Shown: positions 23,920 through 49,535 of the stretch, piece after piece
Position numbering within the stretch: the first letter of the stretch is position 1
How the letters are laid out: every line of letters begins with the position of its first letter
Assembly: GCA_964509695.1 (NCBI GenBank)
Contig: CAZDXN010000001.1
Coordinates: 51,188-115,187, forward strand
Source: an uncultured Pseudomonadales bacterium
GTDB lineage: Bacteria; Patescibacteriota; Microgenomatia; UBA1400; MFAQ01
Direction: 5' to 3'
DNA: 64,000 nucleotides
Notes under the pieces: generated by a model
What the model was told of the DNA's origin: nothing
Database searches by the model: none
Seen by the model: only the letters and a program-made list of their open reading frames with translations
Position numbers and translations under genes: made by a program

Positions 23920-25371
23920 ATGAAAGTTCTGTTAGTTAGCCCCTGGATGAAGACTTTGTATGGTGATGAAAAAACCGTCCCCGGCCATCCTCATCTTGGA
24001 TTGGGGTATCTGACCGCGGTTCTAAAGAAGAATAAACACCAAGTCAGGGTCTTTGACCAGGCCATCGAAAACGATGACGCGAAACTCTATGAATTAATTA
24101 GATCATTCAAACCAGACTTGATTGGATTTAATGCCTTTAGTTATTGCACCAAGTACGTTTCGGATCTTTCACAAGAAGTTAGGAAACGGACCAAAACTCC
24201 ATTAATTCTCGGAGGACCCCATGTCTCCGCGGTTCGTTCTCGCGTACTGGAACAAATGCCCTTTGATTACGCCATCAAAGGTGAAGCCGAAGCTAGTTTG
24301 CTGGTATTTCTAAACGAAATGAAGAAAAAAAAGCCAAAATTTGACACAGTCAAAGGATTAATTTGGCGTAATTCAAAAGGGGAGATTATTGAAAACCAGG
24401 ACATGGCCTACATACATGACCTCGACGCAATTCCTTTTCCGGATTATTCTGAATTCAAATTCGAAAAATATGCCTATTTTACCAGCAAAACCATGCCCAT
24501 CATTACCAGCCGAGGATGCCCCTATGGCTGTAACTATTGCTCGGTCAAGTTATCTATGGGGAGAGGATTCCGCCCACGAAGCCCCCAAAATGTTTTAGCT
24601 GAAATAAAACATTGGTGCGGACAAGGATTCAAAAAATTCGAGATCAATGACGACTGTTTCAGTTTGGACTTGAAAAGAGCCGAGAAAATCTGCGATCTAC
24701 TGATCGAACAAAAGCTAAATATCAGCTACGATATGTATAACGGTATCCGCGCCGACAGGGTAAGTAAGATTCTTCTCCAAAAAATGAAAAACTCAGGCTG
24801 CAAATTCATTTCTTATGGTTGTGAATCAGGAGATCAAAATATCATTATTTCCATGGGAAAGAATCTCAAACTTACGGAAGTAACAAAAGCAGTAAAATTG
24901 ACAAATAAAATCGGCATTAGAAACTCGGTAAACTTTATTATTGGCCACTCAAGCGAAACCAAAAAATCAGCCGAAAAAACACTAGAGTTTGCCAAGAAAC
25001 TTCCCACAGACTTCGTGAACTTTTACAACGTCATTCCTTATCCTGGAACCGATCTATATAACTGGATCGAAAAAAAAGGCCAGTGGATTTATCACCCTGA
25101 CTACATCATGAAGAATATCGGTAGTCGGGACTTGAAACCCGCCTTTGAAACTGAGGGGTTCTCTTCTGAAGAAAGAATTGTAACCCTTAAAAAAGGCTTT
25201 GCCCTTTACGAAAAAAGCGTTCTCAATTTTCGTTTTGGCAAATTCTTTGGGAGAGTCATATATTACCTTACTCGAAATCGAAAGATTTTTTCAGCGGCAC
25301 TCAAGCTGATGCTAAGTACTAAATTGGGCTTTAAATTATATTCTTTAATAACATTTAAATCGCGCCAATAA
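23920..25371 (+). CDS. B12-binding radical SAM protein (class B)
   Basis: TSRGCPYGCNYCS motif and B12-binding N-terminus. Paralog of 19579, 26177, 45863 and 47978. Confidence 0.75.
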   Translation: MKVLLVSPWMKTLYGDEKTVPGHPHLGLGYLTAVLKKNKHQVRVFDQAIENDDAKLYELIRSFKPDLIGFNAFSYCTKYVSDLSQEVRKRTKTPLILGGPHVSAVRSRVLEQMPFDYAIKGEAEASLLVFLNEMKKKKPKFDTVKGLIWRNSKGEIIENQDMAYIHDLDAIPFPDYSEFKFEKYAYFTSKTMPIITSRGCPYGCNYCSVKLSMGRGFRPRSPQNVLAEIKHWCGQGFKKFEINDDCFSLDLKRAEKICDLLIEQKLNISYDMYNGIRADRVSKILLQKMKNSGCKFISYGCESGDQNIIISMGKNLKLTEVTKAVKLTNKIGIRNSVNFIIGHSSETKKSAEKTLEFAKKLPTDFVNFYNVIPYPGTDLYNWIEKKGQWIYHPDYIMKNIGSRDLKPAFETEGFSSEERIVTLKKGFALYEKSVLNFRFGKFFGRVIYYLTRNRKIFSAALKLMLSTKLGFKLYSLITFKSRQ

Positions 25372-26180
25372 TGTTACCTCAAGTCGAAGATATCTTTATC
25401 GTTGTCAACCGGATCAACTCCAAACCATGTGTTTGGTCTTATCTTACCTCAATCGAATATATGCTTCGAAGCAAACTTTACATGAGTTATCTTCTCAGAG
25501 ACGCTAAATCAGTCGGCGACGAACTTAAAATACTCGAAAAGAGAAAGAACAAGGGTCTAAAGGTTTTAGATATCGGCACCGGTTCGGGAATCTTTGCCGT
25601 GTTGTTACGTAAAGAAAATAAGCGAATCAGGTTAGAGGGACTCGACGCCTTCGTCAATACCAGCCAATCCGATCCGAATTTCCACGATACAGCAAAACAA
25701 CAAAAATCACTCTGGGAAAGTCTTTCATCAAGCTACAATGTTAAGTTTTCTCACTACGATGGTCTAAAAATCCCTTACAAAGACGAATCATTTGATATCA
25801 TCACCGCCTACGCCGTTATCGAGCACGTCTTTCCCCCAGACCTAGATAGAGTTGTGAAAGAAATACGTCGTGTCCTGAAAAAGGATGGACTACTCTTCAT
25901 TTTTAAATGTCCGCGGACATTATCATATAACGAACACCTCGCCAAGTTCATAGGGATAAAGGCTCATGATCTGTTGTTTTCCGACAAACAAGTCCGAGAT
26001 TTGTTCAATAAACATCAGTTCAAGATAATTAAACACTGGCGTTCGGATATGGTCCCAGCCTTTCCTGCCAAGCTAACAAATATATTCTATAAACTACTAA
26101 AAGTTCTTGATCACGTTCTGACAGCTAGCCCGCTTCAAATATTTGCCCATCACAACAACCTAGTCGTCAAAAAAAGTTGA
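25371..26180 (+). CDS. Class I SAM-dependent methyltransferase
   Basis: VLDIGTGSGIFAVLL motif I and AYAVIEHV motif. Confidence 0.7.
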   Translation: MLPQVEDIFIVVNRINSKPCVWSYLTSIEYMLRSKLYMSYLLRDAKSVGDELKILEKRKNKGLKVLDIGTGSGIFAVLLRKENKRIRLEGLDAFVNTSQSDPNFHDTAKQQKSLWESLSSSYNVKFSHYDGLKIPYKDESFDIITAYAVIEHVFPPDLDRVVKEIRRVLKKDGLLFIFKCPRTLSYNEHLAKFIGIKAHDLLFSDKQVRDLFNKHQFKIIKHWRSDMVPAFPAKLTNIFYKLLKVLDHVLTASPLQIFAHHNNLVVKKS

Positions 26181-27721
26181 CCATGAAAATTCTCCTAGTT
26201 TACCCAACCATAACTATCTACGGCAAGGACCGATCGGCAGTTTCTCCGATTCCACCATTGGGATTGGCATACATCGCCGCCTATATGGAGAAGCTTGGTC
26301 ATACCATCAAAATTCTCGATTGCGTCGCCGAGGGAATAGAAAACGTCAATAAGGTCAAGGGTGGTTTTCGGGTCGGTCTGGACGATACCAAAATAGCCAT
26401 TGAAATCAAAAAGTTCTCCCCTGACATCGTCGGCATCAGCTCGATGTTCTCGGCCTATGCTCAGGATGCCTATAGGATCGCCTTCTTAGTTAAAAATATT
26501 TCCAAGGAAATTCTGGTCGTCTTCGGTGGCGCCCATGCTTGTGCCCTGACGGATGACGTTCTCAAAAACAAAACAATTGATCTGTGCGTCATCGGGGAGG
26601 GGGAGCTGACCTTTGCCGAGATTGTCGATAAATTTTCCAAAGGGAAGCCGTATTTAAATATCAACGGGGTTGCTTACAAAAAGATGGGGAAAGTAATTTT
26701 TACTAGTCCGCGGGAACTAATCAATGACCTTGACGTGCTTCCTCTGCCGGCACGCCATCTATTGCCCATGGACATATATCTTAATAAACACAAAAATCCA
26801 TTCGTCTATTACGACCGTCATACTTTTATGATCTCTTCCCGTGGTTGTCCGATGAATTGTGTTTATTGTTCGATCCATGCCATTTGGAAAAATAAATGGC
26901 GATCGCGCTCTCCCGAAAGTGTTGTTGACGAAATTGAATATTTGGTCAAACAATATGGCATCAAGGAAATCCATTTTGTTGACGATAATCTTACAGTAAA
27001 CAAGAAACGAGCCGGATCCATTTGTGATCTAATCATCAAAAGAAAACTAAATATTAAGTGGACAGGCCCAAACGGCGTAGCTATTTGGACACTAGACGAG
27101 AAGCTGTTGGACAAAATGAAAAAAAGCGGTTGTTACCGCCTAACCTTCGGAATCGAATCCGGGTCGCAGCAAACCCAGAAGTTCATCCGAAAAAATCTCA
27201 ATCTAGAATATGCCAGAGATATGATAGCCTATTGCAACAAGATTGGAATTTGGACCCTTTCAACTTTTATCGTCGGATTTCCATACCAAGACAAAGACCA
27301 AATCGAGGCTTCGATCAATTACGCCATAAAATCCAAAACCGATTTTGCCACCTTTTACGTATTGATGCCCTTTCCCTCGACAGATGTTTGGAATATCTTA
27401 ATAAGGGAAAACCTCCTAAAAGAAAACGAGTTCTTCAACGAAATTGGCTACTATCTTTCCACCAGAGGAGTGACTTCTAAATACTTCAATCATGAACAAA
27501 TCCAGTTTTTTGCATCCCTCGCCCACAAAAAAGTATTAAAGGAGCAGATATTCCGGCTTATCTTTACCCCGGGTCATTATCTAAAGAAAATTCAAACCCG
27601 AGGGGATTTAGCTTATGCCGGAAAACTGTTGAAACAATTTGGTTGTCTTCTCTATCATTCGCTCGGTCGGCATGTCCGTGTCGGCGGTGCTATTTATCGC
27701 AAATCAGTTACCAGAGAATAG
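26177..27721 (+). CDS. B12-binding radical SAM protein (class B)
   Basis: SSRGCPMNCVYCS motif and B12-binding N-terminus. Confidence 0.75.
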   Translation: MTMKILLVYPTITIYGKDRSAVSPIPPLGLAYIAAYMEKLGHTIKILDCVAEGIENVNKVKGGFRVGLDDTKIAIEIKKFSPDIVGISSMFSAYAQDAYRIAFLVKNISKEILVVFGGAHACALTDDVLKNKTIDLCVIGEGELTFAEIVDKFSKGKPYLNINGVAYKKMGKVIFTSPRELINDLDVLPLPARHLLPMDIYLNKHKNPFVYYDRHTFMISSRGCPMNCVYCSIHAIWKNKWRSRSPESVVDEIEYLVKQYGIKEIHFVDDNLTVNKKRAGSICDLIIKRKLNIKWTGPNGVAIWTLDEKLLDKMKKSGCYRLTFGIESGSQQTQKFIRKNLNLEYARDMIAYCNKIGIWTLSTFIVGFPYQDKDQIEASINYAIKSKTDFATFYVLMPFPSTDVWNILIRENLLKENEFFNEIGYYLSTRGVTSKYFNHEQIQFFASLAHKKVLKEQIFRLIFTPGHYLKKIQTRGDLAYAGKLLKQFGCLLYHSLGRHVRVGGAIYRKSVTRE

Positions 27722-27723
27722 TC

Positions 27724-28440: not shown

Positions 28441-28451
28441 CAAATAATATT

Positions 28452-29231
28452 ATGAAAACATTTCAGGATAAAAAATCGGAAATAACGTTTTTTGACAATC
28501 TCGCGATTAAGAGTGAATACGATGCCGTTCCCGAACAGGTATATAAAAAAGTTGCCATACGTTGTCACAGATTACTACAAAGCAAGCCATCAAAGATACT
28601 TGAAGTGGGTTGTGGTTCAGGAAAATTTGGTAAGGCACTAGCTCAATTGGGTCATAAAGTTACCGGTATAGATATATCATCTGAGACGGTGAAGAACGCC
28701 AATCGAGAAAAACCAAAAGGTTTCAAAGCGAAAATTCTCGACATGGAAAACCAAAAAAATTTTCCTAAAGACTCCTTCTCTCTAATACTCTGCCCCGGTG
28801 TTCTTCATCATTTACCGAACTTAACTATAAGCCAAGCAATTCCAAACTTCCGTCATTGGCTTGAGCCGGGTGGGTTAGTGGTTTGTTGGGAACCAAATGG
28901 ATCAAACCCAATCACCGCGCTTTCCAAAATTCTCTTTAGACTAGTTTATCTTATAGCTGGTGGTGGTGAATTTGCGACAGTGAATGAAACAAATCATTCA
29001 TTTAAACAATATTTGTCGTCATTTGAAAGAAATGGTTTCAGACTTGTCTCTTCGAGGCCCTTATCTGATAAAAGCACGGCTGGCTTTTCAAATCCTGTCA
29101 TGCGGATCCTCATCGAAATTCGTTGGCTTTTGTATGTTCTAATCGACAAACTGATCCCTCCCCCCTTTTCTGGAGTGATGTTATTCATGATCTATCGAAA
29201 AAAATCATTACTTTCGAAGACATATGCTTAG
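28452..29231 (+). CDS. Class I SAM-dependent methyltransferase
   Basis: ILEVGCGSGKFGKALAQLGHKVTGIDIS motif. Confidence 0.7.
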   Translation: MKTFQDKKSEITFFDNLAIKSEYDAVPEQVYKKVAIRCHRLLQSKPSKILEVGCGSGKFGKALAQLGHKVTGIDISSETVKNANREKPKGFKAKILDMENQKNFPKDSFSLILCPGVLHHLPNLTISQAIPNFRHWLEPGGLVVCWEPNGSNPITALSKILFRLVYLIAGGGEFATVNETNHSFKQYLSSFERNGFRLVSSRPLSDKSTAGFSNPVMRILIEIRWLLYVLIDKLIPPPFSGVMLFMIYRKKSLLSKTYA

Positions 29232-32040
29232 CCAACTAGTCCTTAGCGGATTTCTTTATACGATCGTCGCGATAGCAAGTATTAGAAAGCTTCTTGGTAT
29301 AGGGGAGGGCTTGGGACACAACTGGGATTCACCGTTTTCACCCTTGGCTATAAGTTATCTCTCTATGCTCAAAAACCTCCCGTATGTCTGGAACGGTCAA
29401 CATTCTCTCGGGTTTCCCATTATCTCTTCGATCTCAACCAAGATATGGTGGCTTTTCAATTCTACGGTCGGCATTGTTCTCAAGGGCAGTTTTGTCACCC
29501 AATTTATGATTTTATTTCTAATGATTGGTGGTGGGTTGCTTATGTTCTATTATGTTCGACAAATTCTAAAGACTAGCGGCCGTTCATCACTCTTTTTTGC
29601 ACCATTTTGTGCCGGCTTGTTTTTCATGTTTTCGCCGGTGGTTTTCGGTCACATAGTCGGCGGAGCTTTCAATCAGTTCTTTACTATGGTTGTGTCCCTA
29701 TTACTACTCATTGCCCTACAGGCCGGCGCATCAAGACAAAATATCAATAGAACGTCGATTGAAATATCACTCATTTTTATATTTATCTCCGTCACCCTCC
29801 ACAATCACCTAATTAACATTTTTATCACCATCTGTTACGTTTCACTTTTATATAGCTGGACTATAAAAAGGAAAATCGAATTGGCAGCAAAGACTACGAT
29901 GATTAGCTTGCTATTGGCAGCATACTGGCTTTTCCCAGAAATATACGGCTTGGCCAACTCAAATATTGCTCAAAAACTAAAGGAAAATATCTCCTTCGGC
30001 AACTTGGTTGTGAATGTGCCCAGTATAAGTAATGCGCTTTTTGCTAACGGTTATGTCCGTCGTTTCTATGACTTCATGGTTATAGACGGTCTGTATTCCA
30101 TTTGGAAAGTTGCCGGCCTATCTTTATTCTTCATCATCATCGCTTCAGTATTTCTAGTCGGCGAAACAAATTTTCAAGTCAAAAAATATTCTCTTTTCTG
30201 GTTTGGTTTGTTCTTAATCTTTGTAAATTTCGCTACCGGTTTTACCGGTCCATTAGGATCGGCTATCAAATTTTTGTACGAAAATTTCCCCCCACTATCG
30301 ATTTTTCGTTCTCCCCAATGGTGGATGATGCCCTTAACGATTTGTTTTGCAGTTCTTATTGGCTTGAGCTTCGAGCGATTCGCCAGCTTGCTTCGATTCA
30401 AACTATCAACCAAATTATCGTTGTTCACCCTCTTGGTATTTGTCTTACACCCTTTTTATATATCGGGAGATTTAGGCATTGAAAAACTGTATCAAAGGCA
30501 ACTGGCGACTACCAATTGGTATAAGGCTGATCATCTTGATTTGTACAAAGTTCCGGGTGATTACCGCAAAACGATCGAAATTCTTGCCAAAGACGACTCC
30601 GACTCAAAAGTTCTTCTCCTCCCCCTTAGTTTAAGTCCCTATTTCGAAGTGACATCGTATCAAAAGCAGGGTTCTGGAGTTGACCCGATTCTCGCTTATC
30701 TAGCCCCCAAGCCCGTCATCTTTAACGATATAAATGTTGAATACGACACAAAGAGCACTCTACTCTCTCCGGAGAAAAAACTTTATCGCGACCGGAGTCT
30801 CGAATTTCTAAACCTATTGGGGGTTTTCAATACGAAGTACATTTTATTCAAGAAAGATTACTCTCCTGTTTTTTCTGATTATCGAAACTTCTGGGACGGC
30901 CAAACAGTTTACAGTCTACTGACGAAAAATATCAGCCAAATTGGCGAAATTGTCGAAAACGGTGAGTCGACTCTCCTCGTCAAGCTCAATGACAACCTAT
31001 ATTGGCCCCACGTTTACGTCCCACAAAATATTTTCGTTGTCAGTGGCAATCCACAATCATTATCAGATATTGGTTCTCTGGTTGACGACAAAAAAAAATC
31101 CGCCGTCTTTTTTTCCGAGGCGGTCAGCGGCCCCCAAGTTTCAGATCCTCATGATTTAGATCGTGAAAATGTCTCCCCATCTTCACTTTTTGTAGTCGGG
31201 GAACTGATAAAAAAAATTAAAGGTTATTATCGATCGAAGTTTGATCTTAAAATTCCTCAAGCAGGAGAATACAAGATTTTGGCAAAAAACGACCTCCAAG
31301 ACACCAATTGGAAATTGGTTGAAGAAAAATATTTCGAAAAAGGTCAAACCACATATCTTCTACCGGAACCAAAACCCATCAATCTGGTCGATAAGTTCGG
31401 AGTCATAACGGATTATCAATACGATACCGAATACCTAGTCAGTTTCTATTACAACGATGATAACGACAACACAATATTGACAGTTGTCGAAGAAGGTGAA
31501 AAAGAAAAGCTAGTTCTCGACAAACTCCCGCGCACGGAAGAAAATTTTGTGTTATATCAAACCGTTTTTCGTTCAACCCCAAGGGGCCTACCGGCAATAA
31601 TATCCGTTTCAAACGAAGCGGTGAAAGATCTCAGAGTCGAAAAAGTGACATCTCCCCAGATAATCCTTTGGAAAAAAGGCCGGGTAGAAATGAAAGATAC
31701 TCCAGAAGTAGAGTTGGTAAAGATCAACCCGACGAAGTACCGAATCACCGTGAAGAACGCCACCAAACCATTCGTTTTGATTTTTTCCGAAGCCTACAAC
31801 CAAGGGTGGAAGCTTAGATACATGAACCGTGTGATTTCCAAAGCCAGTCACAAAGTGGTTAACGGATATGCCAATTCGTGGATTGTAGTCCCCAACGAGG
31901 TAGGAGCCAAACGTGATTTTGAGCTGATCATTGAATTTTGGCCGCAAAAACTATTCTATATTGGTCTACTTATAAGTGGTTTTTCACTGATTCTCACCCT
32001 CTCATTTCTGATAAAGTACGCCAATGAAAAAGAATCGTAA
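29224..32040 (+). CDS. Large polytopic membrane protein, YfhO-like GT-C glycosyltransferase candidate
   Basis: About 13 N-terminal TM helices, a large C-terminal extracytoplasmic domain and a terminal TM helix. The C-terminal FSEAYNQGWKL...VNGYANSWIV...EFWPQ block is shared with 50680..52863 and resembles the YfhO-family C-terminal signature. Confidence 0.5.
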   Translation: MLSQLVLSGFLYTIVAIASIRKLLGIGEGLGHNWDSPFSPLAISYLSMLKNLPYVWNGQHSLGFPIISSISTKIWWLFNSTVGIVLKGSFVTQFMILFLMIGGGLLMFYYVRQILKTSGRSSLFFAPFCAGLFFMFSPVVFGHIVGGAFNQFFTMVVSLLLLIALQAGASRQNINRTSIEISLIFIFISVTLHNHLINIFITICYVSLLYSWTIKRKIELAAKTTMISLLLAAYWLFPEIYGLANSNIAQKLKENISFGNLVVNVPSISNALFANGYVRRFYDFMVIDGLYSIWKVAGLSLFFIIIASVFLVGETNFQVKKYSLFWFGLFLIFVNFATGFTGPLGSAIKFLYENFPPLSIFRSPQWWMMPLTICFAVLIGLSFERFASLLRFKLSTKLSLFTLLVFVLHPFYISGDLGIEKLYQRQLATTNWYKADHLDLYKVPGDYRKTIEILAKDDSDSKVLLLPLSLSPYFEVTSYQKQGSGVDPILAYLAPKPVIFNDINVEYDTKSTLLSPEKKLYRDRSLEFLNLLGVFNTKYILFKKDYSPVFSDYRNFWDGQTVYSLLTKNISQIGEIVENGESTLLVKLNDNLYWPHVYVPQNIFVVSGNPQSLSDIGSLVDDKKKSAVFFSEAVSGPQVSDPHDLDRENVSPSSLFVVGELIKKIKGYYRSKFDLKIPQAGEYKILAKNDLQDTNWKLVEEKYFEKGQTTYLLPEPKPINLVDKFGVITDYQYDTEYLVSFYYNDDNDNTILTVVEEGEKEKLVLDKLPRTEENFVLYQTVFRSTPRGLPAIISVSNEAVKDLRVEKVTSPQIILWKKGRVEMKDTPEVELVKINPTKYRITVKNATKPFVLIFSEAYNQGWKLRYMNRVISKASHKVVNGYANSWIVVPNEVGAKRDFELIIEFWPQKLFYIGLLISGFSLILTLSFLIKYANEKES

Positions 32041-34759
32041 ATTACTCCTTCTCTTAATTTTGCCAATTCTATTTTTTTGCCTTTGGGTTTTTTTGAGCAC
32101 ATTCGCCTACCTAAAGAACACGGGGACAGGCTTTCTAACCCTAGAAGATAGTTTTGAAAAACAAAATCTTTCCGGAGATATTACCGTAAACTTGACTAAA
32201 GGGAAAATAGTTACGGGTAGGTTTGTCTCAACTCATGTGAATTTGGGGTCAATATCAATTAGGTTCAGAACCTTCGATCGCATCAACGACGACAAGCTTC
32301 TATTCAGAATCAGGGAAGAAGACAAAATAACTTGGTTCTACCAAGCTGAATACAAAACCGATCAATTCCAACCCAATCAACTATTCCCATTCGGTTTTCC
32401 TCCCCAAAAGGACTCGAAAGGACGAAGTTATGTTTTTGAAATCGAATCATTGGACGGGAGTCTTTTTAACAGTGTTGCCATTGGGGAAACGACCCCAGTT
32501 TTTGTGGCCAGATACACCCTTAGCAAACAGGCCCTACTACTCAACCCGGGACAATTCGTGAAATTTCTTTTCATCAGATTTCAAAACATATCAAAGGATG
32601 ATCAGTTTCTCTCGAGTTGGCGATTCTTCGTCGGCATCCTGTCAGTCTATTGTGCTTCTACTCTTTTAAATAATTCTTTTATCAAGTGGTTTGTGCTTTT
32701 GAATCTCGCCACCATTAGTACGATTATTTTCGACCTAGATCACAACTGGGTTTTCTTATCAGCGATCAGCCTCTTCTGGTTTATCACATTCATAAAATTC
32801 AAAAAAACATCTCGCGACATAGGAAAAATTGCCGTTACATATCTATTTGTCTTAATGGTAGCGACCCTAGCTAATCAAACAAGATATCTCGAAAAGATTT
32901 CAAATTGGGTTTACTATCTCACCCTCATGGCTTTTCTAAGACACATGATCAAAAAGGACATTAGTTCGCTATTTAATAAAATTGCCTCTAGTCAAACCCC
33001 CCAGATCATTCTTATAACTGTCATTGTCGGCATAGTTGTGCATGAAATTTCAAATGTATATTATCTTCCTGTTTTTAGATTGATCGGTGGATTACAGCCA
33101 ATTTTCATCCTCAGTATCTTCATGTTAATCCTCGGAGAGGCATTATTAGTTCTTAGAGGGAAATTGTCCCCCCTCTTTTTTGTGATTTTCATTCTCAAGC
33201 TACCGTTTATTTTCCACGGGAACTGGGAAAATAATTTTTTTGTAACCTACATGACCGACGAGGTTGTTTTTCTATCTCCAATAATCTCACACGTCCATTC
33301 GGGTTCACTTAGCCTAAACGAGTTCCTGATTTTCGGTTACCCGCCATTTTTGTTTAATGTCCTTTATGGTCTTTACAGTCTGCTTTTCGGAATATTGAAA
33401 ATAATGAGTATCCAACTCTCTGAAATCAGAACACTTGAAATTATTTATTACGGGGGAAGGTTATTAGTTCTAACGGCCACTGTTACTGGCTCTTATTTCT
33501 TTCTAAAGGTATTTCGAGAACTTATACCGTCTCGTTTTTATCAGGGACTTTTAATAATTCTTATCAATTTTAACGGTCTCTTCTTTTTATACTCGACCTA
33601 CTTAAAGACAGATAATCTAGTCTGGGCGATGGGGGCGATCGCCATTTATCAAGGATTGGTCTTCTGGAAAAACAGAAACAGGGTTAACTATTATAAGTTT
33701 GGTCTATTTTCCTTAATACCATCACTCATCAATTACTATGGCTACATTTACATTCTTTTTTTTGCCTTGATATCGATCGTCTCTTCAACCCCGAAAAACA
33801 AAGAAATCTCTATCCCAATAAAATCGAAATTAATTTTTACACTCGTTATCCTGCCAATCTTGTGGTTGCTGGCAAACTTCGAACTTGCCCCAAAGATCAT
33901 CGAGGTCGTCTATTATTTCATCAAATTTGCTACCAGCAAAAACGAACTATTTGTTCCGTTCTTTGAAAATATCAACAATTATCCCTCATATATATTTTAC
34001 TTCGATTATCTTAAATTTTTCTTGACTCCCATCCTATTAATTTTTATTGGTTTACTTCTCTTCATGAAAAAAACTAATCTATATTTCAAGTTATTATGTT
34101 TGACTATGGTGCTATTTTTTCTTCAGCTATCAACCGCCTCATATCGTACTGACCGACTATTTATTCCAATTTATATTTTCGCCATTCTTCTGGTTGTTTA
34201 CTTACTTTCCCAAATATACAATTTCCTCTTGAAAAGTAAATTGCGTTTTGTCGTCGCCTTAATAAGCTTGGCTTTAGCCGGACCGATTCTTGCGAGAACC
34301 CTTTTGCTCGCAAAAACATTACAGGGGGAGGACACCCGTTTAACTTTATACAAATATATCCAACAGGAAGTTCCTGAAAAAGCCTCGCTTACTTTTCTTC
34401 ACAACTCAATTTTTGGAGCCTATGCAACTTCTGATTATCTAAAAAGGAATAATTCCAAAATGTTTGACATTAGAGTTATAGATTTGACGGTTGGTCGTGA
34501 GAACGAACGCTTGAAGGAGATTGGTGGCTATTTTATTGTTTCAGCCTTTGATCTTGATATCTTACGGAAATTCGGCAACACCCCATATTACGGTAGGTCG
34601 TTTCAGGAAACCACAGATCTCATCGCGCGAAGTAAGGAAGTGAGCTTCGTCGACAAAATCAATTATCATTCGGAACCATTTGGTCCGATCGATCTCTTCC
34701 CCAACTCGCTTTACGGCATTCAAAATCCACCACTACTCATCTACAAAACAAACGATTAA
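32024..34759 (+). CDS. Fusion of a conserved uncharacterised roughly 110-aa domain (N-terminal, membrane-anchored) with a large polytopic GT-C-like membrane domain
   Basis: The N-terminal TM helix is followed by the ISIRFRTFDRINDD...YKTDQFQPNQLFPFGFP domain, which is also found at 39345 and 52860. About 20 TM helices follow. Confidence 0.5.
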   Translation: MKKNRKLLLLLILPILFFCLWVFLSTFAYLKNTGTGFLTLEDSFEKQNLSGDITVNLTKGKIVTGRFVSTHVNLGSISIRFRTFDRINDDKLLFRIREEDKITWFYQAEYKTDQFQPNQLFPFGFPPQKDSKGRSYVFEIESLDGSLFNSVAIGETTPVFVARYTLSKQALLLNPGQFVKFLFIRFQNISKDDQFLSSWRFFVGILSVYCASTLLNNSFIKWFVLLNLATISTIIFDLDHNWVFLSAISLFWFITFIKFKKTSRDIGKIAVTYLFVLMVATLANQTRYLEKISNWVYYLTLMAFLRHMIKKDISSLFNKIASSQTPQIILITVIVGIVVHEISNVYYLPVFRLIGGLQPIFILSIFMLILGEALLVLRGKLSPLFFVIFILKLPFIFHGNWENNFFVTYMTDEVVFLSPIISHVHSGSLSLNEFLIFGYPPFLFNVLYGLYSLLFGILKIMSIQLSEIRTLEIIYYGGRLLVLTATVTGSYFFLKVFRELIPSRFYQGLLIILINFNGLFFLYSTYLKTDNLVWAMGAIAIYQGLVFWKNRNRVNYYKFGLFSLIPSLINYYGYIYILFFALISIVSSTPKNKEISIPIKSKLIFTLVILPILWLLANFELAPKIIEVVYYFIKFATSKNELFVPFFENINNYPSYIFYFDYLKFFLTPILLIFIGLLLFMKKTNLYFKLLCLTMVLFFLQLSTASYRTDRLFIPIYIFAILLVVYLLSQIYNFLLKSKLRFVVALISLALAGPILARTLLLAKTLQGEDTRLTLYKYIQQEVPEKASLTFLHNSIFGAYATSDYLKRNNSKMFDIRVIDLTVGRENERLKEIGGYFIVSAFDLDILRKFGNTPYYGRSFQETTDLIARSKEVSFVDKINYHSEPFGPIDLFPNSLYGIQNPPLLIYKTND

Positions 34760-36790: not shown

Positions 36791-36793
36791 ACA

Positions 36794-39348: not shown

Positions 39349-40175
39349 ATACTCCAAGCAATAAGTTCAGTAATTCAGTCATCAACCTACTTGCAATCGT
39401 CGCCTTGTCTATAACAGGTATTTTCGGCATACTTCGTTATTTGAAATCAGAAAATACCGGTTTTTTTACAGTTGAGACCTCTCCTAAAATTGTAAATATC
39501 GTTTCTCCTCCCGATTCAAGGTTATTAAAGAACAACTATTTCGAGGCAAAATTTAAGGCCACCTTGCCCCACCTCGGGATTGTTTCGATCCGATTCGATA
39601 CTTTCGATCGCATCAACAACGACACACTCAGATTTAAATTAATAAAAATAAATAAGAATGAAAAATTGTACGAGGGTTCTTACAAAACGGATCAATTCCA
39701 ACCTGAAAAACTTTTTCCATTTGGATTTCCTGTGGTTGCTGATTCCGAGGGAGAAACTTTTCAAATTAATCTCACTTCCGAAACAGGATCTCCGTCCTCA
39801 TCGGTCGCCATCAGTCATAATTTGCCATTTATCACTACTAGGTATGTGTTGAATATCAATACCCTAAGACGTGAGCCGATTCTTTTATATCGCTTTTTCC
39901 GCTACAAAATAACCAATTTTATCTCGAATCCTCGTTTCATTAGCTATCTTACTATCTCTTTTCTTCCTCTTTGTCTGTATCTTTTTCTTTACAAGAAGAT
40001 AAAAAACAAATTGGGACTCTTCACCTTTACCATGTTCGTGATATTGATAGGAATTCCCCGGATTTCACCAGAACCGATAGTCGAGATTTTTTCAGCTACG
40101 GCCGTCATATCTTTGATATTACTCACAATTTCATCCGTTCGGAAAGCAATCCATTACAATAACAAAAATGTCTAA
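39345..40175 (+). CDS. Membrane-anchored protein carrying the conserved uncharacterised FRTFDRIN/YKTDQFQ/LFPFGFP domain
   Basis: N-terminal TM helix, then GIVSIRFDTFDRINNDTLRF...YKTDQFQPEKLFPFGFPVVADSEG, then a C-terminal hydrophobic segment. Paralog of 32024 (N-terminus) and 52860. Confidence 0.5.
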   Translation: MNTPSNKFSNSVINLLAIVALSITGIFGILRYLKSENTGFFTVETSPKIVNIVSPPDSRLLKNNYFEAKFKATLPHLGIVSIRFDTFDRINNDTLRFKLIKINKNEKLYEGSYKTDQFQPEKLFPFGFPVVADSEGETFQINLTSETGSPSSSVAISHNLPFITTRYVLNINTLRREPILLYRFFRYKITNFISNPRFISYLTISFLPLCLYLFLYKKIKNKLGLFTFTMFVILIGIPRISPEPIVEIFSATAVISLILLTISSVRKAIHYNNKNV

Positions 40176-40863
40176 TACGTTTATCGAAATACCTACTGAC
40201 GAGCTTTCGGGGCGGTTGGCTTTTACTGTATCCAAATTTATAGACAAAAAAGATATTCGTCAAAAAAGAGTTTTAGACATAGGTTGTGGGTTCGGATGGT
40301 TTGAGGCATGGGCACTTAATCAACAACCTGAAACCATTCACGGAATCGAACTAAAAAGCGATAATCTCAAAAACCTTAAAAAAATGAGAGACAAACGTCT
40401 AAAATGTAAGGTGGGAAGTGCCATCAAGATCCCCTATCCAAATAATAGTTTCGATACAGTGACATCATGGGAGGTGGTCGAACACATTCCGCCTCAGACA
40501 GAAGAGACAATGTTTCGGGAAGTATATCGGGTGCTAAAGCCGAGAGGAGTTTTTTATCTTTCTACTCCCAACTCCCATTTGGTTAGCAGGGTCCTTGATC
40601 CGGCTTGGTGGCTGATTGGGCATCGTCATTATAACCTCGACTTCTTTAGAAGACTCGCCAAGAAGACTGGCTTTCAAATCCGAAGATACGTCGTCAAGGG
40701 TAAAATTTGGGAGCTCCTGACAATAATTAACCTCTATATTTCAAAATGGCTTCTAAAGAGGCCACTTCTATTTCCGACCTTCTTTTCCCGAAGGCGGGAT
40801 AAGGAATACCGTCAAAAAAACGGTTTTGCCTTGATTTTTATAAAATTAACGAAACAAAAATAA
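40168..40863 (+). CDS. Class I SAM-dependent methyltransferase
   Basis: VLDIGCGFGWF motif I and WEVVEHI motif. Confidence 0.7.
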   Translation: MSNTFIEIPTDELSGRLAFTVSKFIDKKDIRQKRVLDIGCGFGWFEAWALNQQPETIHGIELKSDNLKNLKKMRDKRLKCKVGSAIKIPYPNNSFDTVTSWEVVEHIPPQTEETMFREVYRVLKPRGVFYLSTPNSHLVSRVLDPAWWLIGHRHYNLDFFRRLAKKTGFQIRRYVVKGKIWELLTIINLYISKWLLKRPLLFPTFFSRRRDKEYRQKNGFALIFIKLTKQK

Positions 40864-41936
40864 TGTCGTTGACAAAATATCCAAAAATCTCAGTCGTTAT
40901 GCCAATTTTGAACGAGTCATTTCGACTGGCCGGATGTTTGCGGTCTATCAGAGACCAGAACTATCCTCAAGATAAAATTGAAATAATAATTGCGGACGGT
41001 GGGTCGACAGATGATTCGGTAAAAATAGCAAAACAGTTTGGGGCAATTGTTGTCTTTAATCCTCTTAGAACTTCAGAAAGTGGGAAAGCTGCCGCCCTAA
41101 AAGAAAGTAAGGGAGATCTGATTCTCCTCATAGACGGAGACAATTTGCTACCCGATAATAATTGGCTTCGTAAAATGGTTCGGCCCCTATCGGCCGATAA
41201 AAGATTGGTTGGTAGTGAGGCTCTTTACTTCACTCATAGGTATACGGACGGGTTCATCGATAGATACTGTGCCTTAATTGGGATGAATGACCCTCTATGT
41301 TATTGGCTTGGCGCCTACGATAGGTACTCCCTATTATCAGGAAAATGGACGGGCCTTCAGGTTCAGAGTAAAAAACATAAAGATTATCTTGAGGTAAAAT
41401 TGCATCAAGGGAATATTCCGACCATAGGTTCAAATGGTTGTCTCTTTCGCCATTCCATCTTCGAAAAAAACCATGAGCTACAAAGAAAATATCTATTCGA
41501 CATGGATATTTTGGAACTTCTCTGTCATAAATACGGCCCGCAACTTTTCGCCAAAGTTGAAGTGGGGGTGATTCACCTGTATTGCGGCACGAGTCTAAGG
41601 CGGTTCGCCAGGAAACAACACCGAAGGGTCAAAGATTTTCTCTTTCGACGTTCGCTAAAAAATATTTTTGTAGAAAATAGTTATGAGAAAAGGAGATATC
41701 AATACGGGCAGAAAAATCAATTTAACTTACTTTGGGGGTTAGCCGGTTTCTCTCTTTCTTGTCTAACAGTGTTTCCTCTATTGTTTCAGTCACTTTACGG
41801 GTATTCCAAAAAACGTGATTCCGCCTGGTTCGCCCACCCCTTCCTCTGTTGGATAACTTTTGTTATCTATGCCTATGGAGCCGCTGAAAGTTTATTTTTT
41901 AGTAGTGAGTATAGCCGCGAGAAATGGGGAAGATAA
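40863..41936 (+). CDS. GT2 family glycosyltransferase with C-terminal membrane tail (paralog of 8241..9257)
   Basis: ISVVMPILNESFRLAGCLRSI...IIADGGSTDDS motif and a conserved C-terminal KKRDSAWFAHPFLCW. Confidence 0.7.
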   Translation: MSLTKYPKISVVMPILNESFRLAGCLRSIRDQNYPQDKIEIIIADGGSTDDSVKIAKQFGAIVVFNPLRTSESGKAAALKESKGDLILLIDGDNLLPDNNWLRKMVRPLSADKRLVGSEALYFTHRYTDGFIDRYCALIGMNDPLCYWLGAYDRYSLLSGKWTGLQVQSKKHKDYLEVKLHQGNIPTIGSNGCLFRHSIFEKNHELQRKYLFDMDILELLCHKYGPQLFAKVEVGVIHLYCGTSLRRFARKQHRRVKDFLFRRSLKNIFVENSYEKRRYQYGQKNQFNLLWGLAGFSLSCLTVFPLLFQSLYGYSKKRDSAWFAHPFLCWITFVIYAYGAAESLFFSSEYSREKWGR

Positions 41937-44083: not shown

Positions 44084-45235
44084 ATGATGCAACACGGCAA
44101 GGTCCTTATCATTTGCCCATTTACCGCTCCGAATCAGGGTGGTGTAGAGTCCCACATCCAGAAGCTACTTAAGTTTTTGGATACCAAAAAAACCAAGGCC
44201 ATCATTGTCAGCTACACCCCACTCACTACCCCAATAAAGTCCCCCTGGTACGAAAAAAAGGATAACTACGAAATCTATCGTATGCCATGGTTTGGCAACG
44301 GTTGGTTCCCGAAAATCGAACACAATCCGATTCTGACTTCTCTCTACCTCGTTCCGGGTTTGTTGTTCCTCAGTCTTTACGTTGGGATCAGACGAAGGAA
44401 TGAAATTAGGGTCGTTCATTCCCATGGCTTCGCCGCTGGATTGATTGGCGCGTTGATGAAACCCATCATCAATAAGAGATCCGTAATTAGTACCCACGCG
44501 ATCTACAATTTTGAGAACCGCCCTCTACTCGCAAAAATTATCAAAGGTATCCTGTCCTGCTACGATTATATCCTCGCTGTCGGAGAACCATCCAAACAAG
44601 AGCTTATCAAGATCGGCCTGTCAAAGGAAAAGATAGAAGTTCATCCCAACTGGGTCGACACGGACTTTTTCAAACCCGCCAACGCTTCCAAGTTCCACAA
44701 AAAATTAACCGCGATCTTTGTTGGTAGAGGATTGAGGAAGAAAGGCCTCTTTCTTTTCGGAGAACTAGCAGTGGAAAATCCGAATCTTGATTTCATCGCC
44801 CGCGTCGCTGAAGGTCCCGATCTGGATGAATTCATTACGAAATTTAGCAATCAAAAAAACCTAGACATCAGGACGGGTTTGCCTCAAGATTTTGAAAAGA
44901 AAATGAAAACCATCAGGGGCGAGTATCAGTCAGCAGATGTCTTTATTATGCCCTCTCTTTACCCAGAAGGTTTTGCCTCGGTAGTAATCGAGGCTGCCAG
45001 TTCCGGCCTAGCCCTTATTTCATCCAATCTCGGCACCCTCCCCAGCATTCTAGAGGGATCAGGCGCTGAGATAGTAACCCCGACCGAAAAAAACATCTCG
45101 GCTGTTCTGCGGAAACTGGACAGAAACAGGTCCCTATTACGGAAACTCCAAATCGGCATGAGACAATTCGCTATAAGCAAGTTTTCCGACGAAAACGCCG
45201 AGGTAATATACAATAGCTACAACTTCCGGCAATGA
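44084..45235 (+). CDS. GT4 family glycosyltransferase (GT-B fold)
   Basis: C-terminal EGFASVVIEAASSGLALISSNLGTLPSIL matches the GT4 E-x7-E region. Confidence 0.75.
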   Translation: MMQHGKVLIICPFTAPNQGGVESHIQKLLKFLDTKKTKAIIVSYTPLTTPIKSPWYEKKDNYEIYRMPWFGNGWFPKIEHNPILTSLYLVPGLLFLSLYVGIRRRNEIRVVHSHGFAAGLIGALMKPIINKRSVISTHAIYNFENRPLLAKIIKGILSCYDYILAVGEPSKQELIKIGLSKEKIEVHPNWVDTDFFKPANASKFHKKLTAIFVGRGLRKKGLFLFGELAVENPNLDFIARVAEGPDLDEFITKFSNQKNLDIRTGLPQDFEKKMKTIRGEYQSADVFIMPSLYPEGFASVVIEAASSGLALISSNLGTLPSILEGSGAEIVTPTEKNISAVLRKLDRNRSLLRKLQIGMRQFAISKFSDENAEVIYNSYNFRQ

Positions 45236-45855
45236 AAAAAATAAAACTTAATCTCGGTTCGGGACCGTCCGGAATAAACGGCTGGGTTAATTATGACACT
45301 GGAGTACTTCCTTGGCTCTCAAGACATCCCCAACTTAGGCATCTAATTTGTGCTTTGGGTCTGTTACCCAAAAATTACGACGTCGAATGGCCTGAAATCC
45401 AACTGGTCGATATAAGACACAAGTTTCCTTTGGAAGATGAATCTGTCGATTTTATTTATTGTTCCCAAGTAATCGAGCATTTTGAAAGATATGAAGCTCT
45501 AAATATACTAAGGGAGTCTCACCGGGTTCTAAAACTTGATGGAGTTATCCGCATCAGTGTCCCGGATATAGAGAAAATGCTTAGTCCTGATTTTACCGCC
45601 AGAGAAATAAACGTCCTCTGGTGGGGATACGAAAAAGATATTCCTCCTGCAAATATTTTCTCCAAGATTTCACGGCTATTTATTCGCGAACATCAATGGC
45701 ACTATGACACTACATCAATGAAAAAGCTCCTCTCTCAAGCTGGCTACAGGAGGGTGAAAACGTGCTCATTCAGAAGAGGTGAAACACCTGATCTTGATCG
45801 AGTTGAGATTGATGCTCACAAAAAGCACAGCCTCTATATAGAGGCAAAGAAATAG
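45232..45855 (+). CDS. SAM-dependent methyltransferase (Methyltransf_11/23-like)
   Basis: KLNLGSG motif I and FIYCSQVIEHF motif. Confidence 0.6.
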   Translation: MKKIKLNLGSGPSGINGWVNYDTGVLPWLSRHPQLRHLICALGLLPKNYDVEWPEIQLVDIRHKFPLEDESVDFIYCSQVIEHFERYEALNILRESHRVLKLDGVIRISVPDIEKMLSPDFTAREINVLWWGYEKDIPPANIFSKISRLFIREHQWHYDTTSMKKLLSQAGYRRVKTCSFRRGETPDLDRVEIDAHKKHSLYIEAKK

Positions 45856-45862
45856 ATCAGAT

Positions 45863-47212: not shown

Positions 47213-47991
47213 AAAAAAAGATTGAAAAAAACCGTTGGCAAGCTGCCCAAAAATTTGAATACAATGACTGGGCAAATATGCCAAACATCGTAACAGATGA
47301 ATGGAAAGAGCTCGTGAAGAAATATTCAAAACTATTTCCAAAAATCGCCAAAAGCTCTGACCTGAAAGATTCAGACGCCATTCTCGACGTCGGCTGCGGT
47401 CCAACCGTCCCAGCCAGGCTTCTTAGAAAAGGAAGGGTCACTGGTATCGAACCCCTAGCAGATAAACTCAAGATCTCTGGAGGAAAGTACTTACCCGGCG
47501 TAAATATCATCTGCGGCAAAGCCGAAAAAATGCCTTTTAAAGATCACTCATTTCAGTTCGTTGTCTGTCGAAACGTCATTGACCACACCCAGAATCCCAA
47601 GGTAATCATTAAAGAAGTAAAAAGAGTTTTAAAAAAAAATGGTCATTTTCTTCTAATTTCTTACACCTATTCACCTTTTATCACTTTTGTAAAAAACATT
47701 AGCGAGCGCATTGGATTATTTCGCAACATCGGTCATCCATTCACCTTCACACCAGAAATGCTTGACCAACTAGTTCAACCGGAATTTGAAATCAAACAAA
47801 GATATACTATTCACACAGGCAAAGATTCTACTGACTATGGCAAAGTGGGGGAGGAGATTGTTGACAATTCCTTGCTGCACAAGACGATGATATTTATTAA
47901 CAACAAAATTTTGGGAGAACCATGGTTTCTAAAGGAATACGGCTTCTTGTGCATCCCAACACCAAAACATACTAAATATGCCGAAGTCTAA
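47209..47991 (+). CDS. Class I SAM-dependent methyltransferase
   Basis: The start sits in an ATGA overlap with the upstream stop. ILDVGCGPTVPARLL motif I and VCRNVIDH. Confidence 0.7.
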   Translation: MKKKIEKNRWQAAQKFEYNDWANMPNIVTDEWKELVKKYSKLFPKIAKSSDLKDSDAILDVGCGPTVPARLLRKGRVTGIEPLADKLKISGGKYLPGVNIICGKAEKMPFKDHSFQFVVCRNVIDHTQNPKVIIKEVKRVLKKNGHFLLISYTYSPFITFVKNISERIGLFRNIGHPFTFTPEMLDQLVQPEFEIKQRYTIHTGKDSTDYGKVGEEIVDNSLLHKTMIFINNKILGEPWFLKEYGFLCIPTPKHTKYAEV

Positions 47992-49525
47992 AAAGAAAAT
48001 TATTCTAATTAGACCTCTCGTTTTTTCAAAGACGAGACCCTATTACGGTGCTCCACTCGCATTGTTGGCGATTTCCAAAATACTAGCAACCGAGGGTTAC
48101 AAGATAAAGATCATCGATCCGCTAACTCACAGGGACTATGTCACTGCTGTAGTTCGGGAAGCAAAAGACGCCATTTGCGTTGGTATTTCGGCCTTGACGG
48201 GATATTCTATTTTCGATGGATTACAAATTGCCCGGGCTGTCAAAAGGAAATATCCTAAACTTCCGGTCGTTTGGGGAGGCTGGCACCCGTCAATCCTCCC
48301 TCTTGAGACCATCAAAGACGAAAATGTCGATATTGTGGTCTACGGACAAGGCGAAAGAACCTTTACCGAATTGGTCCACTCCATAGAGAAAAATAAAACA
48401 TTAAAAAATATTAAGGGGATAATCTATAAAAATAAGAAGGGAAAAATAGTTCAAAATACACCGAGACCAATCGAATCGTTAGACAACTTCCCCCCCGTTC
48501 CTTATCACCTGATCGACGTAAAGAAATTTCTCGTCCCTCAAGAATACGGGAAAAGATCTCTAGTCTATTACACAAGTTTTGGTTGTCCTCATCGATGCAT
48601 TTTCTGTGTCGAACAAATCGTAAACAACCGTCATTGGGCCGGACTCTCTCCAGAGCGGGCCGTGGAAGAAATCACCGACATGAAACAAAAATACGGAATT
48701 GACTCAATCCAGATTATCGATAGTAATTTCTTTATCAATGAGGATAGGTCCCGGAGGTTCGCCCAACTCTTAATCGATCAAAAAGTGAACATAAAGTGGG
48801 GAAACGTGAACGGCAGAACTAGGCAGATGAGCCAATACAGAGATTCCACCTGGAAGCTAATGAAACAAAGCGGCCTCGAATGCATCCTGATCGGAGCCGA
48901 GTCGGGCAGCAACGAGACTCTGAAATATATGAAGAAAGATATCACCGTCGCTGACACTCTAAATTTGACCAAGTTCTGTGCCAGATATGACATAAAGATT
49001 CTTAGTTCGTTCTTAGTCGGATTTCCTCACTCAGCCGATCCAGAGAAATGTTACAAGATCACCGAAAAGGAACTAGCCACCTCTCTGAGGTTAATCGATA
49101 AAATGTTCAAGATCTATCCTCGAATTAGAATGATGTTTGCCTTATTCCTCCCCTATCCCAGCACCGCCTTGTTCGAAGAAAGCCGGAGAATGGGTTTAGA
49201 GATACCCGAAAGACTTGAAGATTGGCACGAATTTCTGATTGCGGCTGAAGATGCATCCAAAATCAGAGTCCGTCAAAAATGGATTACCCAGGAACAAGCG
49301 CGCCGGATCTTAATGATTTCTATCTATATATTTTTCTTTATGGATCCTGATTCATTCAATTTGGTCACCGCCAAAATTAATAATCCGTTGAAAAAAGCCT
49401 TTCTCCATTTTGGGTTCCAAGTTTTCAAAAAGATTGTTGACTTGCGTTGGAAATATAAATATTTTGGATTACCAATCGACTTTTGGTTTTATAATATTTT
49501 AAGAAAATATAGCGGTCTAGGATAA
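47978..49525 (+). CDS. B12-binding radical SAM protein (class B)
   Basis: TSFGCPHRCIFCV motif and B12-binding N-terminus. Confidence 0.75.
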   Translation: MPKSKKKIILIRPLVFSKTRPYYGAPLALLAISKILATEGYKIKIIDPLTHRDYVTAVVREAKDAICVGISALTGYSIFDGLQIARAVKRKYPKLPVVWGGWHPSILPLETIKDENVDIVVYGQGERTFTELVHSIEKNKTLKNIKGIIYKNKKGKIVQNTPRPIESLDNFPPVPYHLIDVKKFLVPQEYGKRSLVYYTSFGCPHRCIFCVEQIVNNRHWAGLSPERAVEEITDMKQKYGIDSIQIIDSNFFINEDRSRRFAQLLIDQKVNIKWGNVNGRTRQMSQYRDSTWKLMKQSGLECILIGAESGSNETLKYMKKDITVADTLNLTKFCARYDIKILSSFLVGFPHSADPEKCYKITEKELATSLRLIDKMFKIYPRIRMMFALFLPYPSTALFEESRRMGLEIPERLEDWHEFLIAAEDASKIRVRQKWITQEQARRILMISIYIFFFMDPDSFNLVTAKINNPLKKAFLHFGFQVFKKIVDLRWKYKYFGLPIDFWFYNILRKYSGLG

Positions 49526-49535
49526 AGTTCTCTCC

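Follow-up and report, generated by a model that had tools for sequence, protein, structure and literature searches.

We analysed a 64,000-nucleotide stretch of contig CAZDXN010000001.1 (the window), in which genes for radical S-adenosylmethionine (SAM) enzymes, hereafter rSAM enzymes, are interleaved with genes for class I methyltransferases (MTs) and glycosyltransferases (GTs). Pfam scans of the whole window revealed seven rSAM genes, six of them paralogs, and at least 10 class I MT domains. On the plus strand, the rSAM gene R19579 (19579..21084) is followed by the gene for an AsnB-type glutamine amidotransferase of the exopolysaccharide-associated kind (AsnB, 21090..22964; PF00733 and GATase, with TIGR01536 at 457 bits, above its cutoff), and by that for the family-2 glycosyltransferase GT2a (22968..23882; PF00535). 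No more than one hydrophobic segment is present in GT2a, which is similar to soluble family-2 enzymes of the rhamnosyltransferase/MftF type. The next genes, also on the plus strand, are R23920 (23920..25371), M25371 (25371..26180), R26177 (26177..27721), M27724 (27724..28440), and M28452 (28452..29231). Farther downstream on this strand lie the MT gene M40168 together with GT2h (40168..41936), followed by a second module in which M45232 (45232..45855; a compact MT of 207 amino acids, PF08241), R45863 (45863..47212), M47209 (47209..47991), and R47978 (47978..49525) are bracketed by the family-4 glycosyltransferase genes GT4a on the left (44084..45235; PF13439, PF00534) and GT4b on the right (49536..50675; PF00534). 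Four of the five rSAM genes of the B12-binding type are thus flanked by class I MT genes. Gene order, coordinates, and domains of these rSAM/MT dyads, as described in the initial annotation, were confirmed by the listing of open reading frames and by Pfam. The five flanking MTs, as well as M37707, M38626, and M40168, matched Methyltransf_11, _23, _25, or _31 above the Pfam cutoff, and none of them reached a curated equivalog cutoff of NCBIfam. Their pairwise identity is only 20–32%.

All six rSAM paralogs matched PF04055 at 58–88 bits (R19579 at 84.9 bits). The B12-binding N-terminus that had been ascribed to all of them was found in five, as R19579 (54.7 bits), R23920, R26177, R45863, and R47978 matched PF02310 at 53–71 bits against a cutoff of 32.1, but not in R11513 (11513..13051, minus strand), an rSAM protein of class B architecture with a degenerate N-terminal Rossmann domain, which matched PF04055 only. 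The [4Fe-4S] cluster motif is CX3CX2C in the five B12-type paralogs and CX4CX2C in R11513. The longer motif RGCP[YM]xCx[FY]CS, initially regarded as common to the paralogs, is present in four of them, but R47978 reads FGCPHRCIFCV. In the structures of OxsB, TsrM, and TokK, base-off, His-off cobalamin is held by a Gly-Gly motif of strand beta4 and a Gly-Glu motif of helix alpha5, and the older DxHxxG cobalamin motif was called a 'red herring' (PMC9204698). A comparison of motifs showed that both cobalamin motifs are kept in all five B12-type paralogs (GGPH and GEGE in R19579, GGPH and GEAE in R23920, GGAH and GEGE in R26177, GGYF and GEGE in R45863, GGWH and GQGE in R47978) and are absent from R11513. 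DxHxxG occurs in no paralog, as expected with His-off binding.

Alignment of the six paralogs, which had been proposed as a check, gave pairwise identities of 20–37%, marking them as old paralogs. We also compared AlphaFold (AF2) models of R23920 and R11513 with structures in the PDB by Foldseek. The R23920 model (predicted local distance difference test score, pLDDT, 88) matched TsrM, CysS, AprD4, MgmA, OxsB, and TokK with TM-scores of 0.61–0.71 and E values of 1e-19 to 1e-23. Membership of the paralogs in a named family (HpnJ, BchE, Sden_1168/PhpK, ApyD, AprD4, HpnR, MgmA, BzaD, or KedN5) was rejected, as all scores were below the curated NCBIfam cutoffs; the highest, that of R26177 against Sden_1168, was 274 bits with a cutoff of 575. 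The closest NCBIfams were Sden_1168, HpnJ, BchE, ApyD, and AprD4. A plasmid collection contained paralogs only, at 30% identity or less.

Homologues of R23920 number more than 3000 at 50–66% identity, and occur in both bacterial and archaeal phyla. Their hosts include Saccharibacteria, Microgenomates, Shapirobacteria, WWE3, Omnitrophota, Planctomycetales, Actinomycetota, Magnetospirillum magnetotacticum MS-1, Methanolobus, Halobacteriota, and Aenigmarchaeota, and also Methanosarcinales and DPANN. We annotated 80 genome loci on the R23920 side with the window's own proteins, and followed the second block by context look-ups and in 80 metagenome loci. In all, about 170 related loci were compared. 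A recurring cassette emerged, with the order GT2f-R11513 ... EPI-M40168-(AsnB)-GT2a-(R19579)-R23920-M25371 or R26177 ... GT4a ... GT-C. Genes for short-chain dehydrogenases/reductases (SDRs) and epimerases are conserved in it as well. In about 15 loci, drawn from many phyla, a GT2a orthologue (172–405 bits) is found directly 5' of an R23920 orthologue, making GT2a the conserved upstream partner of R23920, and AsnB orthologues precede GT2a in three loci (L006, L010, L033). The conserved downstream partner is M25371: seven of its nine orthologues adjoin an rSAM gene, and in six cases the gene immediately before it is an R23920 orthologue. By comparison, none of the 10 M40168 orthologues stands beside an rSAM gene, and nearly all are located just upstream of GT2a or AsnB-GT2a, so this MT family, as judged from gene order, has GT2 and not rSAM as its partner. 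R26177 orthologues (489–610 bits) directly follow R23920, with no MT between, in six loci (L003, L021, L028, L030, L032, L035), and the gene that comes after an R23920 orthologue is another rSAM gene about as often as an MT gene.

In the second module, M47209 is the conserved upstream partner of R47978, with orthologues (35–50% identity) directly 5' of R47978 orthologues in L091, L093, L094, L096, and L123. Three of these loci, which belong to close relatives (L094, L096, L123), keep the order of the window, GT4a-M45232-R45863-M47209-R47978, and in the two that extend past R47978 (L094, L096) a GT4b-like gene comes next. In 'Ca. Ancaeobacter' (L091) and in L093 the order is GT4a-MT-M47209-R47978-R45863-GT4b. 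GT4a is syntenic in L091, L093, L094, and L096. A clade of the candidate phyla radiation (CPR) type has yet another arrangement, GT2f-R11513-R47978-like-GT2h-GT4a-(M45232, other strand)-GT4b. Orthologues of M45232 were found beside R47978 orthologues in L112, L119, L127, L129, and L151, or between GT4a and GT4b, and R45863 was found on the same contigs as the R47978 family. Annotated neighbours were available for 37 R47978 orthologues, of which 13 adjoin an MT gene and 17 an rSAM gene.

Fusion proteins link some of these activities within a single polypeptide. Three rSAM-MT fusions (P0022, P0116, P0120) and one fusion of rSAM with an SGNH domain (P0088) were present among the top 120 homologues of R23920, and a fourth rSAM-MT fusion belongs to another rSAM lineage (L092:2710-4857). 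The top 120 homologues of R45863 and the top 120 of R47978 included no fusion. In the rSAM-MT fusions the MT domain is C-terminal. We considered whether the fused MT domains are orthologues of M25371 and rejected this, as they are orthologous neither to M25371 nor to one another; this indicates that at least four rSAM-MT fusions arose independently. MT domains are also fused to GTs, as in the M25371-GT4a protein of an archaeal metagenome-assembled genome (L033:11456-13402), and as in two minus-strand genes of the window, a GT2 with Methyltransf_23 (2024-3481) and a GT2 with FkbM (5474-7210), which means that MT fusion is not specific to rSAM partners.

These modules lie at the core of a large, 60-kb island for the assembly of a cell-surface glycan, where GTs and sugar-nucleotide enzymes are encoded in one locus together with a flippase and with polytopic transferases, as is characteristic of surface-glycan clusters. 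The whole-window Pfam scan identified at least 10 GT2, two GT4, and two PMT_2 genes, and at least 14 GTs altogether. It also identified the GDP-mannose 4,6-dehydratase Gmd (60723-61742, plus strand; 359 bits), a Wzx-type flippase (62327-63565; Polysacc_synt), and, in addition to AsnB, an NDP-sugar epimerase, a GHMP sugar kinase, and a hexapeptide acyltransferase. About eight polytopic membrane proteins of 370–940 amino acids, with 8–16 hydrophobic segments each, are encoded in the window, among others at 363-2027 and 10379-11497 (both minus strand), 29224-34759, 41924-44083, 50680-52863, and 57004-60034, and most of them have no Pfam match. Two, of 938 and 911 amino acids with 11 and 16 hydrophobic segments, close the first operon (29224..34759, plus strand). 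The Pfam scan gave no match for either, yet syntenic counterparts with GT-C_AftD are present in L004, L085, L091, and L092 (the match being faint in L085 and L091), so that both are putative GT-C-type glycosyltransferases. This suggests that several GT-C transferases from unrecognised families are among the polytopic proteins of the window. One polytopic protein carries C-terminal TPR repeats. A cluster for a peptide that is made on ribosomes and modified after translation (RiPP) or for another small molecule was rejected because of how densely GT, GT-C, Wzx, and Gmd genes occur; precursor peptides, nonribosomal peptide synthetases (NRPSs), and polyketide synthases were sought via Pfam scans only. 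A hopanoid or other lipid pathway was likewise rejected, as such genes did not turn up in the Pfam scans of the window.

The substrate of the island's enzymes, which the initial annotation did not name, is a cell-surface glycan, and the reading that we favour, and hold to be reasonably probable, is that GT, class B rSAM, and MT genes form tailoring modules that act on one sugar residue before its export. GT2a, or the GT4a/GT4b pair, would attach a sugar to a lipid-linked intermediate at the cytoplasmic face of the membrane; a class B rSAM enzyme would alter an unactivated carbon of the added residue; a class I MT would methylate a heteroatom (O or N) of the same residue; and Wzx and the GT-C-like membrane proteins would then flip the product and transfer it. 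Both rSAM enzymes and MTs require cytoplasmic SAM, and the former also a reductant, from which we infer that tailoring must precede export by Wzx and GT-C. By analogy, the alteration made by the five B12-type paralogs is most likely a cobalamin-mediated C-methylation, the commonest activity of characterised class B members (PMC12931638). The modules themselves would be ancient, laterally shuffled cassettes of CPR, Omnitrophota, Planctomycetota, DPANN, Methanosarcinales, and Magnetospirillum, which the window appears to concatenate and expand. The initial annotation had proposed successive C-methylation and O- or N-methylation of one substrate. What stands of this proposal is the functional link between rSAM and MT, supported by the conserved pairs, the four or more fusions, and the cobalamin motifs; the fixed rSAM-MT unit does not stand, and C-methylation enters as a prior drawn from characterised enzymes, with substrate level and step order likewise deduced.

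Several findings weigh against this reading. R19579 has no adjoining MT gene; AsnB and then GT2a come after it. M27724 and M28452 are lineage-specific, with no orthologue in the related loci (best scores 45 and 41 bits). Many rSAM orthologues in other genomes lack an MT neighbour, contrary to the expectation that each rSAM gene would always stand beside one. Gene order permutes between genomes, from MT-rSAM-MT-rSAM in the window to MT-MT-rSAM-rSAM in L091 and L093, so that the dyad is not the fixed repeating unit that it had seemed to be; conservation of the pairs holds in distant phyla for R23920 with M25371 and for M47209 with R47978, but not for M27724 and M28452. Given that no two of the fused MT domains are orthologues, and none is an orthologue of M25371, fusion may reflect generic co-operation in a pathway instead of work on a single residue. 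Finally, rSAM-MT adjacency exceeds chance only modestly. In the window, six such adjacencies were counted against 2.9 expected (permutation P=0.027 with five rSAM and eight MT genes among 28), and when labels were shuffled within loci, which are not phylogenetically independent of one another, the counts were 34 against 23.3 (P=0.004) in the first set of loci and 38 against 30.4 (P=0.04) in the second-block set. The strongest conserved adjacency is not that of rSAM and MT but that of GT2 followed by rSAM; in the first set of loci, GT2-rSAM adjacencies number 58 against 41.1 expected, a count reached in none of 2000 shuffles.

One alternative is that rSAM and MT genes became neighbours largely through chance and operon shuffling in an MT-rich, tightly packed island, with each enzyme decorating a residue of its own. 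The tight spacing of rSAM and MT genes, initially taken as a special sign, has lost its force: in the two plus-strand operons, 19579-34759 and 35945-53771, every junction is between -50 and +37 nucleotides, so that close spacing is a trait of the operons and not of the dyads. The abundance of MT domains in the window, the marginal P values of the window and of the second set, the permuting gene order, the missing orthologues of M27724 and M28452, and the R47978 orthologues, 17 of 37 with an rSAM neighbour against 13 with an MT neighbour, all fit in with chance. We nevertheless consider it unlikely, as it leaves unexplained four independent rSAM-MT fusions, the contrast between M25371 and M40168 in their association with rSAM genes, and the persistence of orthologous pairs in phyla of both bacteria and archaea. 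We also considered whether an rSAM-MT unit had recently been duplicated in tandem, and rejected this, given the low identities within both protein groups and the fact that the relationships among the MTs do not mirror those among the rSAM proteins.

A second alternative concerns the chemistry. The rSAM enzymes may not be methylases but may rearrange or deoxygenate the sugar that a GT has installed, in the manner of the diol dehydratase AprD4 or of HpnJ and OxsB, which contract rings, the MT then capping a hydroxyl or an amine. AprD4, HpnJ, and OxsB, all non-methylases that act on sugars, are the closest relatives with a name. Part of what speaks for this also counts against the favoured assignment of C-methylation: the fold does not separate methylases from non-methylases, as AprD4 fits the R23920 model as well as the methylases do, and the nearest NCBIfams mix both kinds, HpnJ, BchE, and AprD4 being non-methylases, so that homology cannot assign the chemistry. 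Among PDB sequences, AprD4 gave the best match to R23920 (3e-19) and to R26177 (1e-14), and it ranks at the top by fold too; in NCBIfam, several paralogs have HpnJ in first or second place, and the conserved SDR and epimerase genes of the cassette would suit sugar rearrangement. The sugar of the HpnJ substrate is installed by the GT2 enzyme HpnI, a logic that parallels the order GT2a-R23920. For HpnJ itself, a hopanoid that carries glucosamine was proposed as the substrate (PMC9204698). On the other hand, the five B12-type paralogs keep the Gly-Gly and Gly-Glu motifs, their scores are far under the HpnJ and AprD4 cutoffs, and AprD4 is reported not to use cobalamin. Together with the predominance of C-methyltransferases among the characterised class B members (PMC12931638), this makes rearrangement or deoxygenation improbable in our view, though it deserves to be kept in mind.

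If the MT acted before the rSAM enzyme, the latter could methylate an O-methyl group once or repeatedly and so extend it to O-ethyl, O-isopropyl, or O-tert-butyl, which is the tert-butyl idea of the initial annotation, in the manner of CysS, which extends methoxy to ethoxy, isopropoxy, and tert-butoxy groups (PMC12846815). CysS is among the top fold matches of the R23920 model; the conserved order M47209-R47978, with overlapping genes, fits a scheme of O-methylation followed by extension, and fusion of both activities would favour channelling. Against this, the rSAM gene comes first in R23920-M25371, the MT domain is C-terminal in the fusions, and identity to CysS is only about 20%. To our knowledge, no O-ethyl or O-isopropyl sugar has been described from any glycan. 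We therefore regard CysS-like extension as quite improbable, and give equally slim prospects to the broader notion that the rSAM-MT pairs and fusions make C-methylated sugars bearing radical-extended O-alkyl ethers (ethyl, isopropyl, tert-butyl). The suggestion, made initially, that the adjoining MT serves the cobalamin cycle by recharging the rSAM cobalamin with methyl finds a trace of support in the weak, sub-threshold similarity of M28452 to the corrinoid protein-associated methyltransferase family CpaM (61.6 bits, cutoff 180) and is very hard to credit, because class B methylases methylate cob(I)alamin themselves, for which their active site uses a second SAM (PMC12846815), because the partner MTs, both adjacent and fused, come from unrelated lineages, and because many orthologues, as well as R19579, have no MT neighbour at all.

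The sixth paralog differs from the others in its cofactor motifs. In R11513, TGYH and SNHVD stand in place of the Gly-Gly and Gly-Glu motifs, and the N-terminal domain is probably cobalamin-free. The R11513 model (pLDDT 86) keeps the Rossmann-plus-barrel fold and gave the same set of matches as R23920, with AprD4 as the best, although the score against the NCBIfam AprD4 model was 26 bits with a cutoff of 500. The unusual Cx4Cx2C spacing (RDCMFGKCTFC) noted in the initial annotation proved to be a family trait, as 18 of 19 orthologues share it in the form RDCW[WY]G[KR]C[ST]FC. In more distant relatives, the first two cysteines are 7 to 12 residues apart or have the canonical spacing of 3. The family is small, with 66 representative clusters at E<1e-30, and its members follow GT2f in 23 loci, in the same cassettes as above. 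R11513 may be a cobalamin-independent relative with a residue inserted into the Fe-S loop, and may perform AprD4-like radical chemistry on a sugar.

Several R11513 orthologues contain inteins (L009:2436-5381, L042:2037-4910, P0380, P0382, P0386, P0402, P0406), of about 270 amino acids in P0406 and about 410–480 in the others. The insertion site lies at the Fe-S cysteines (...C-x4-C-T-F / C[LF]xxET ... HSYTAN..N / C-S-W-T), before the third cysteine, and in P0380 before the first; R11513 of the window has no intein. The gene for an FNR-like FAD/NAD(P)H oxidoreductase (13096..13785, minus strand; PF00970, PF00175) lies directly upstream of R11513, in agreement with the initial annotation. A 4Fe-4S ferredoxin of 69 amino acids (19290..19499, minus strand; Fer4_13 and Fer4_15, CxxCxxC...CP) is divergently oriented to R19579. 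We considered the reductase and the ferredoxin as conserved partners of the rSAM enzymes and rejected this, as no homologue was found in the roughly 170 related loci; they probably provide a lineage-specific electron supply for the seven rSAM enzymes of the window.

Some other genes of the window may bear on the nature of the sugar. An epimerase/dehydratase and a GHMP kinase are encoded at 16834-18743 on the plus strand, the top match of the kinase being the heptose-7-phosphate kinase HddA (174 bits against a cutoff of 600). Together with Gmd, they recur with the R45863/R47978 module in L091 and L093, in L091 beside an NTP-transferase and a SIS isomerase. The recurrence of this gene set hints that the tailored residue is a heptose or a 6-deoxyhexose. 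A split transketolase (N-terminal thiamine pyrophosphate domain and pyrimidine domain; 34756-36032, minus strand), divergent from an SDR gene (35945-36790, plus strand), interrupts the two plus-strand operons. No homologue was found among the related loci, and the product might be a sugar with a two-carbon branch or one that is unusual in another way. The seventh rSAM protein, of the SPASM/twitch type (339 amino acids; 7232-8251, plus strand), sits among GT2 genes; similar genes were found in several related cassettes, at 154 bits in that of L049 and at 106 bits in that of L091, and its 90%-identity cluster has 28 members. Two AbiEii-type toxin-antitoxin pairs (13881-16698, plus strand; 55540-56930, minus strand) lie beside the glycan blocks or break into them, as does a DUF4143 AAA ATPase, which fits a mosaic, laterally assembled island. 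The 20 nucleotides before the start codons of the plus-strand genes at 19579-53771 are mostly A-rich, a GGAGG-type Shine-Dalgarno sequence is not evident, and many of these starts overlap the stop codon of the preceding gene, features that may point to the lineage. A scan of the window for cobalamin and SAM riboswitches and for tRNA genes found none.

The enzyme classes discussed here are known, but multiple, conserved, and sometimes fused modules of them in surface-glycan loci, here from many uncultured phyla, are not described in the literature that could be searched. The substrates of characterised cobalamin-dependent rSAM enzymes are antibiotics, cofactors, lipids, peptides, and proteins; cell-surface polysaccharides or glycans go unmentioned as targets in a 2026 review of the class. 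If the paralogs are sugar C-methylases, or sugar rearrangers, glycans would be a new substrate class for the rSAM family, unusual branched or methylated sugars would be predicted on the envelopes of largely uncultured lineages (CPR, DPANN, and Omnitrophota), and GT2a-R23920-M25371 and M47209-R47978 would be testable gene sets, with M. magnetotacticum MS-1 as a cultured carrier. The R11513 family, with Cx4Cx2C and without the cobalamin motifs, is a second uncharacterised branch. Should the O-alkyl scheme prove true, CPR, DPANN, Omnitrophota, and some methanogens would have hyper-alkylated, hydrophobic cell coats new to glycobiology, and symbionts that do not produce B12 would need scavenged cobalamin for their surface.

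Among known systems, ArnC/ArnD/ArnT, DprE1/E2 with Aft/Emb, and GtrA/B/C tailor a lipid-linked sugar before it is flipped. They share with the window GT2 enzymes that have two C-terminal transmembrane helices, as well as GT-C transferases, and, unlike the window, they use no rSAM or MT tailoring. A GT2 enzyme coupled directly to a class B rSAM enzyme that acts on the newly added sugar has its counterpart in HpnI and HpnJ. HpnJ is among the best NCBIfam matches of all six paralogs, yet at 97–173 bits against a cutoff of 577.6; it is proposed to contract a ring and not to methylate, and neither squalene-hopene cyclase nor hpn genes were seen in the Pfam scans of the window. The 1,2-diol dehydratase system AprD4/AprD3 of apramycin (PDB 6FD2) is the best match in both PDB sequence and fold, and R11513 resembles AprD4 in having a B12-like domain devoid of cobalamin motifs and a reductase gene beside it. 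The differences are an identity of 15–20%, NCBIfam scores of 26–137 bits against the cutoff of 500, the Cx4Cx2C motif of R11513, and the neighbouring reductase, which is FNR-like and not of the AprD3 type and is absent from other genomes. With CysS (PDB 9N1B), the modules share the known two-enzyme logic of class I O-methylation followed by methylation by a cobalamin-rSAM enzyme, but CysS, at about 625–645 amino acids, is larger, has about 20% identity, and has as its substrate an aminobenzoate bound to a carrier, within an NRPS pathway. GenK and GenD1 of gentamicin, Fms7, and MoeK5 are like the five B12-type paralogs in combining a Rossmann domain that carries the GG and GE motifs with a CX3CX2C barrel; their clusters also hold GTs and class I N- or O-MTs, and the task expected of the paralogs, methylation of an unactivated sugar carbon, is the same. 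Orthology to the GenK group is not shown, the curated cutoffs being unmet, and the families of the window are spread over CPR, DPANN, Omnitrophota, and methanogens. While GenK, GenD1, Fms7, and MoeK5 tailor small secreted antibiotics of actinomycetes, the window is a Wzx/GT-C island with five or six such paralogs in a single locus.

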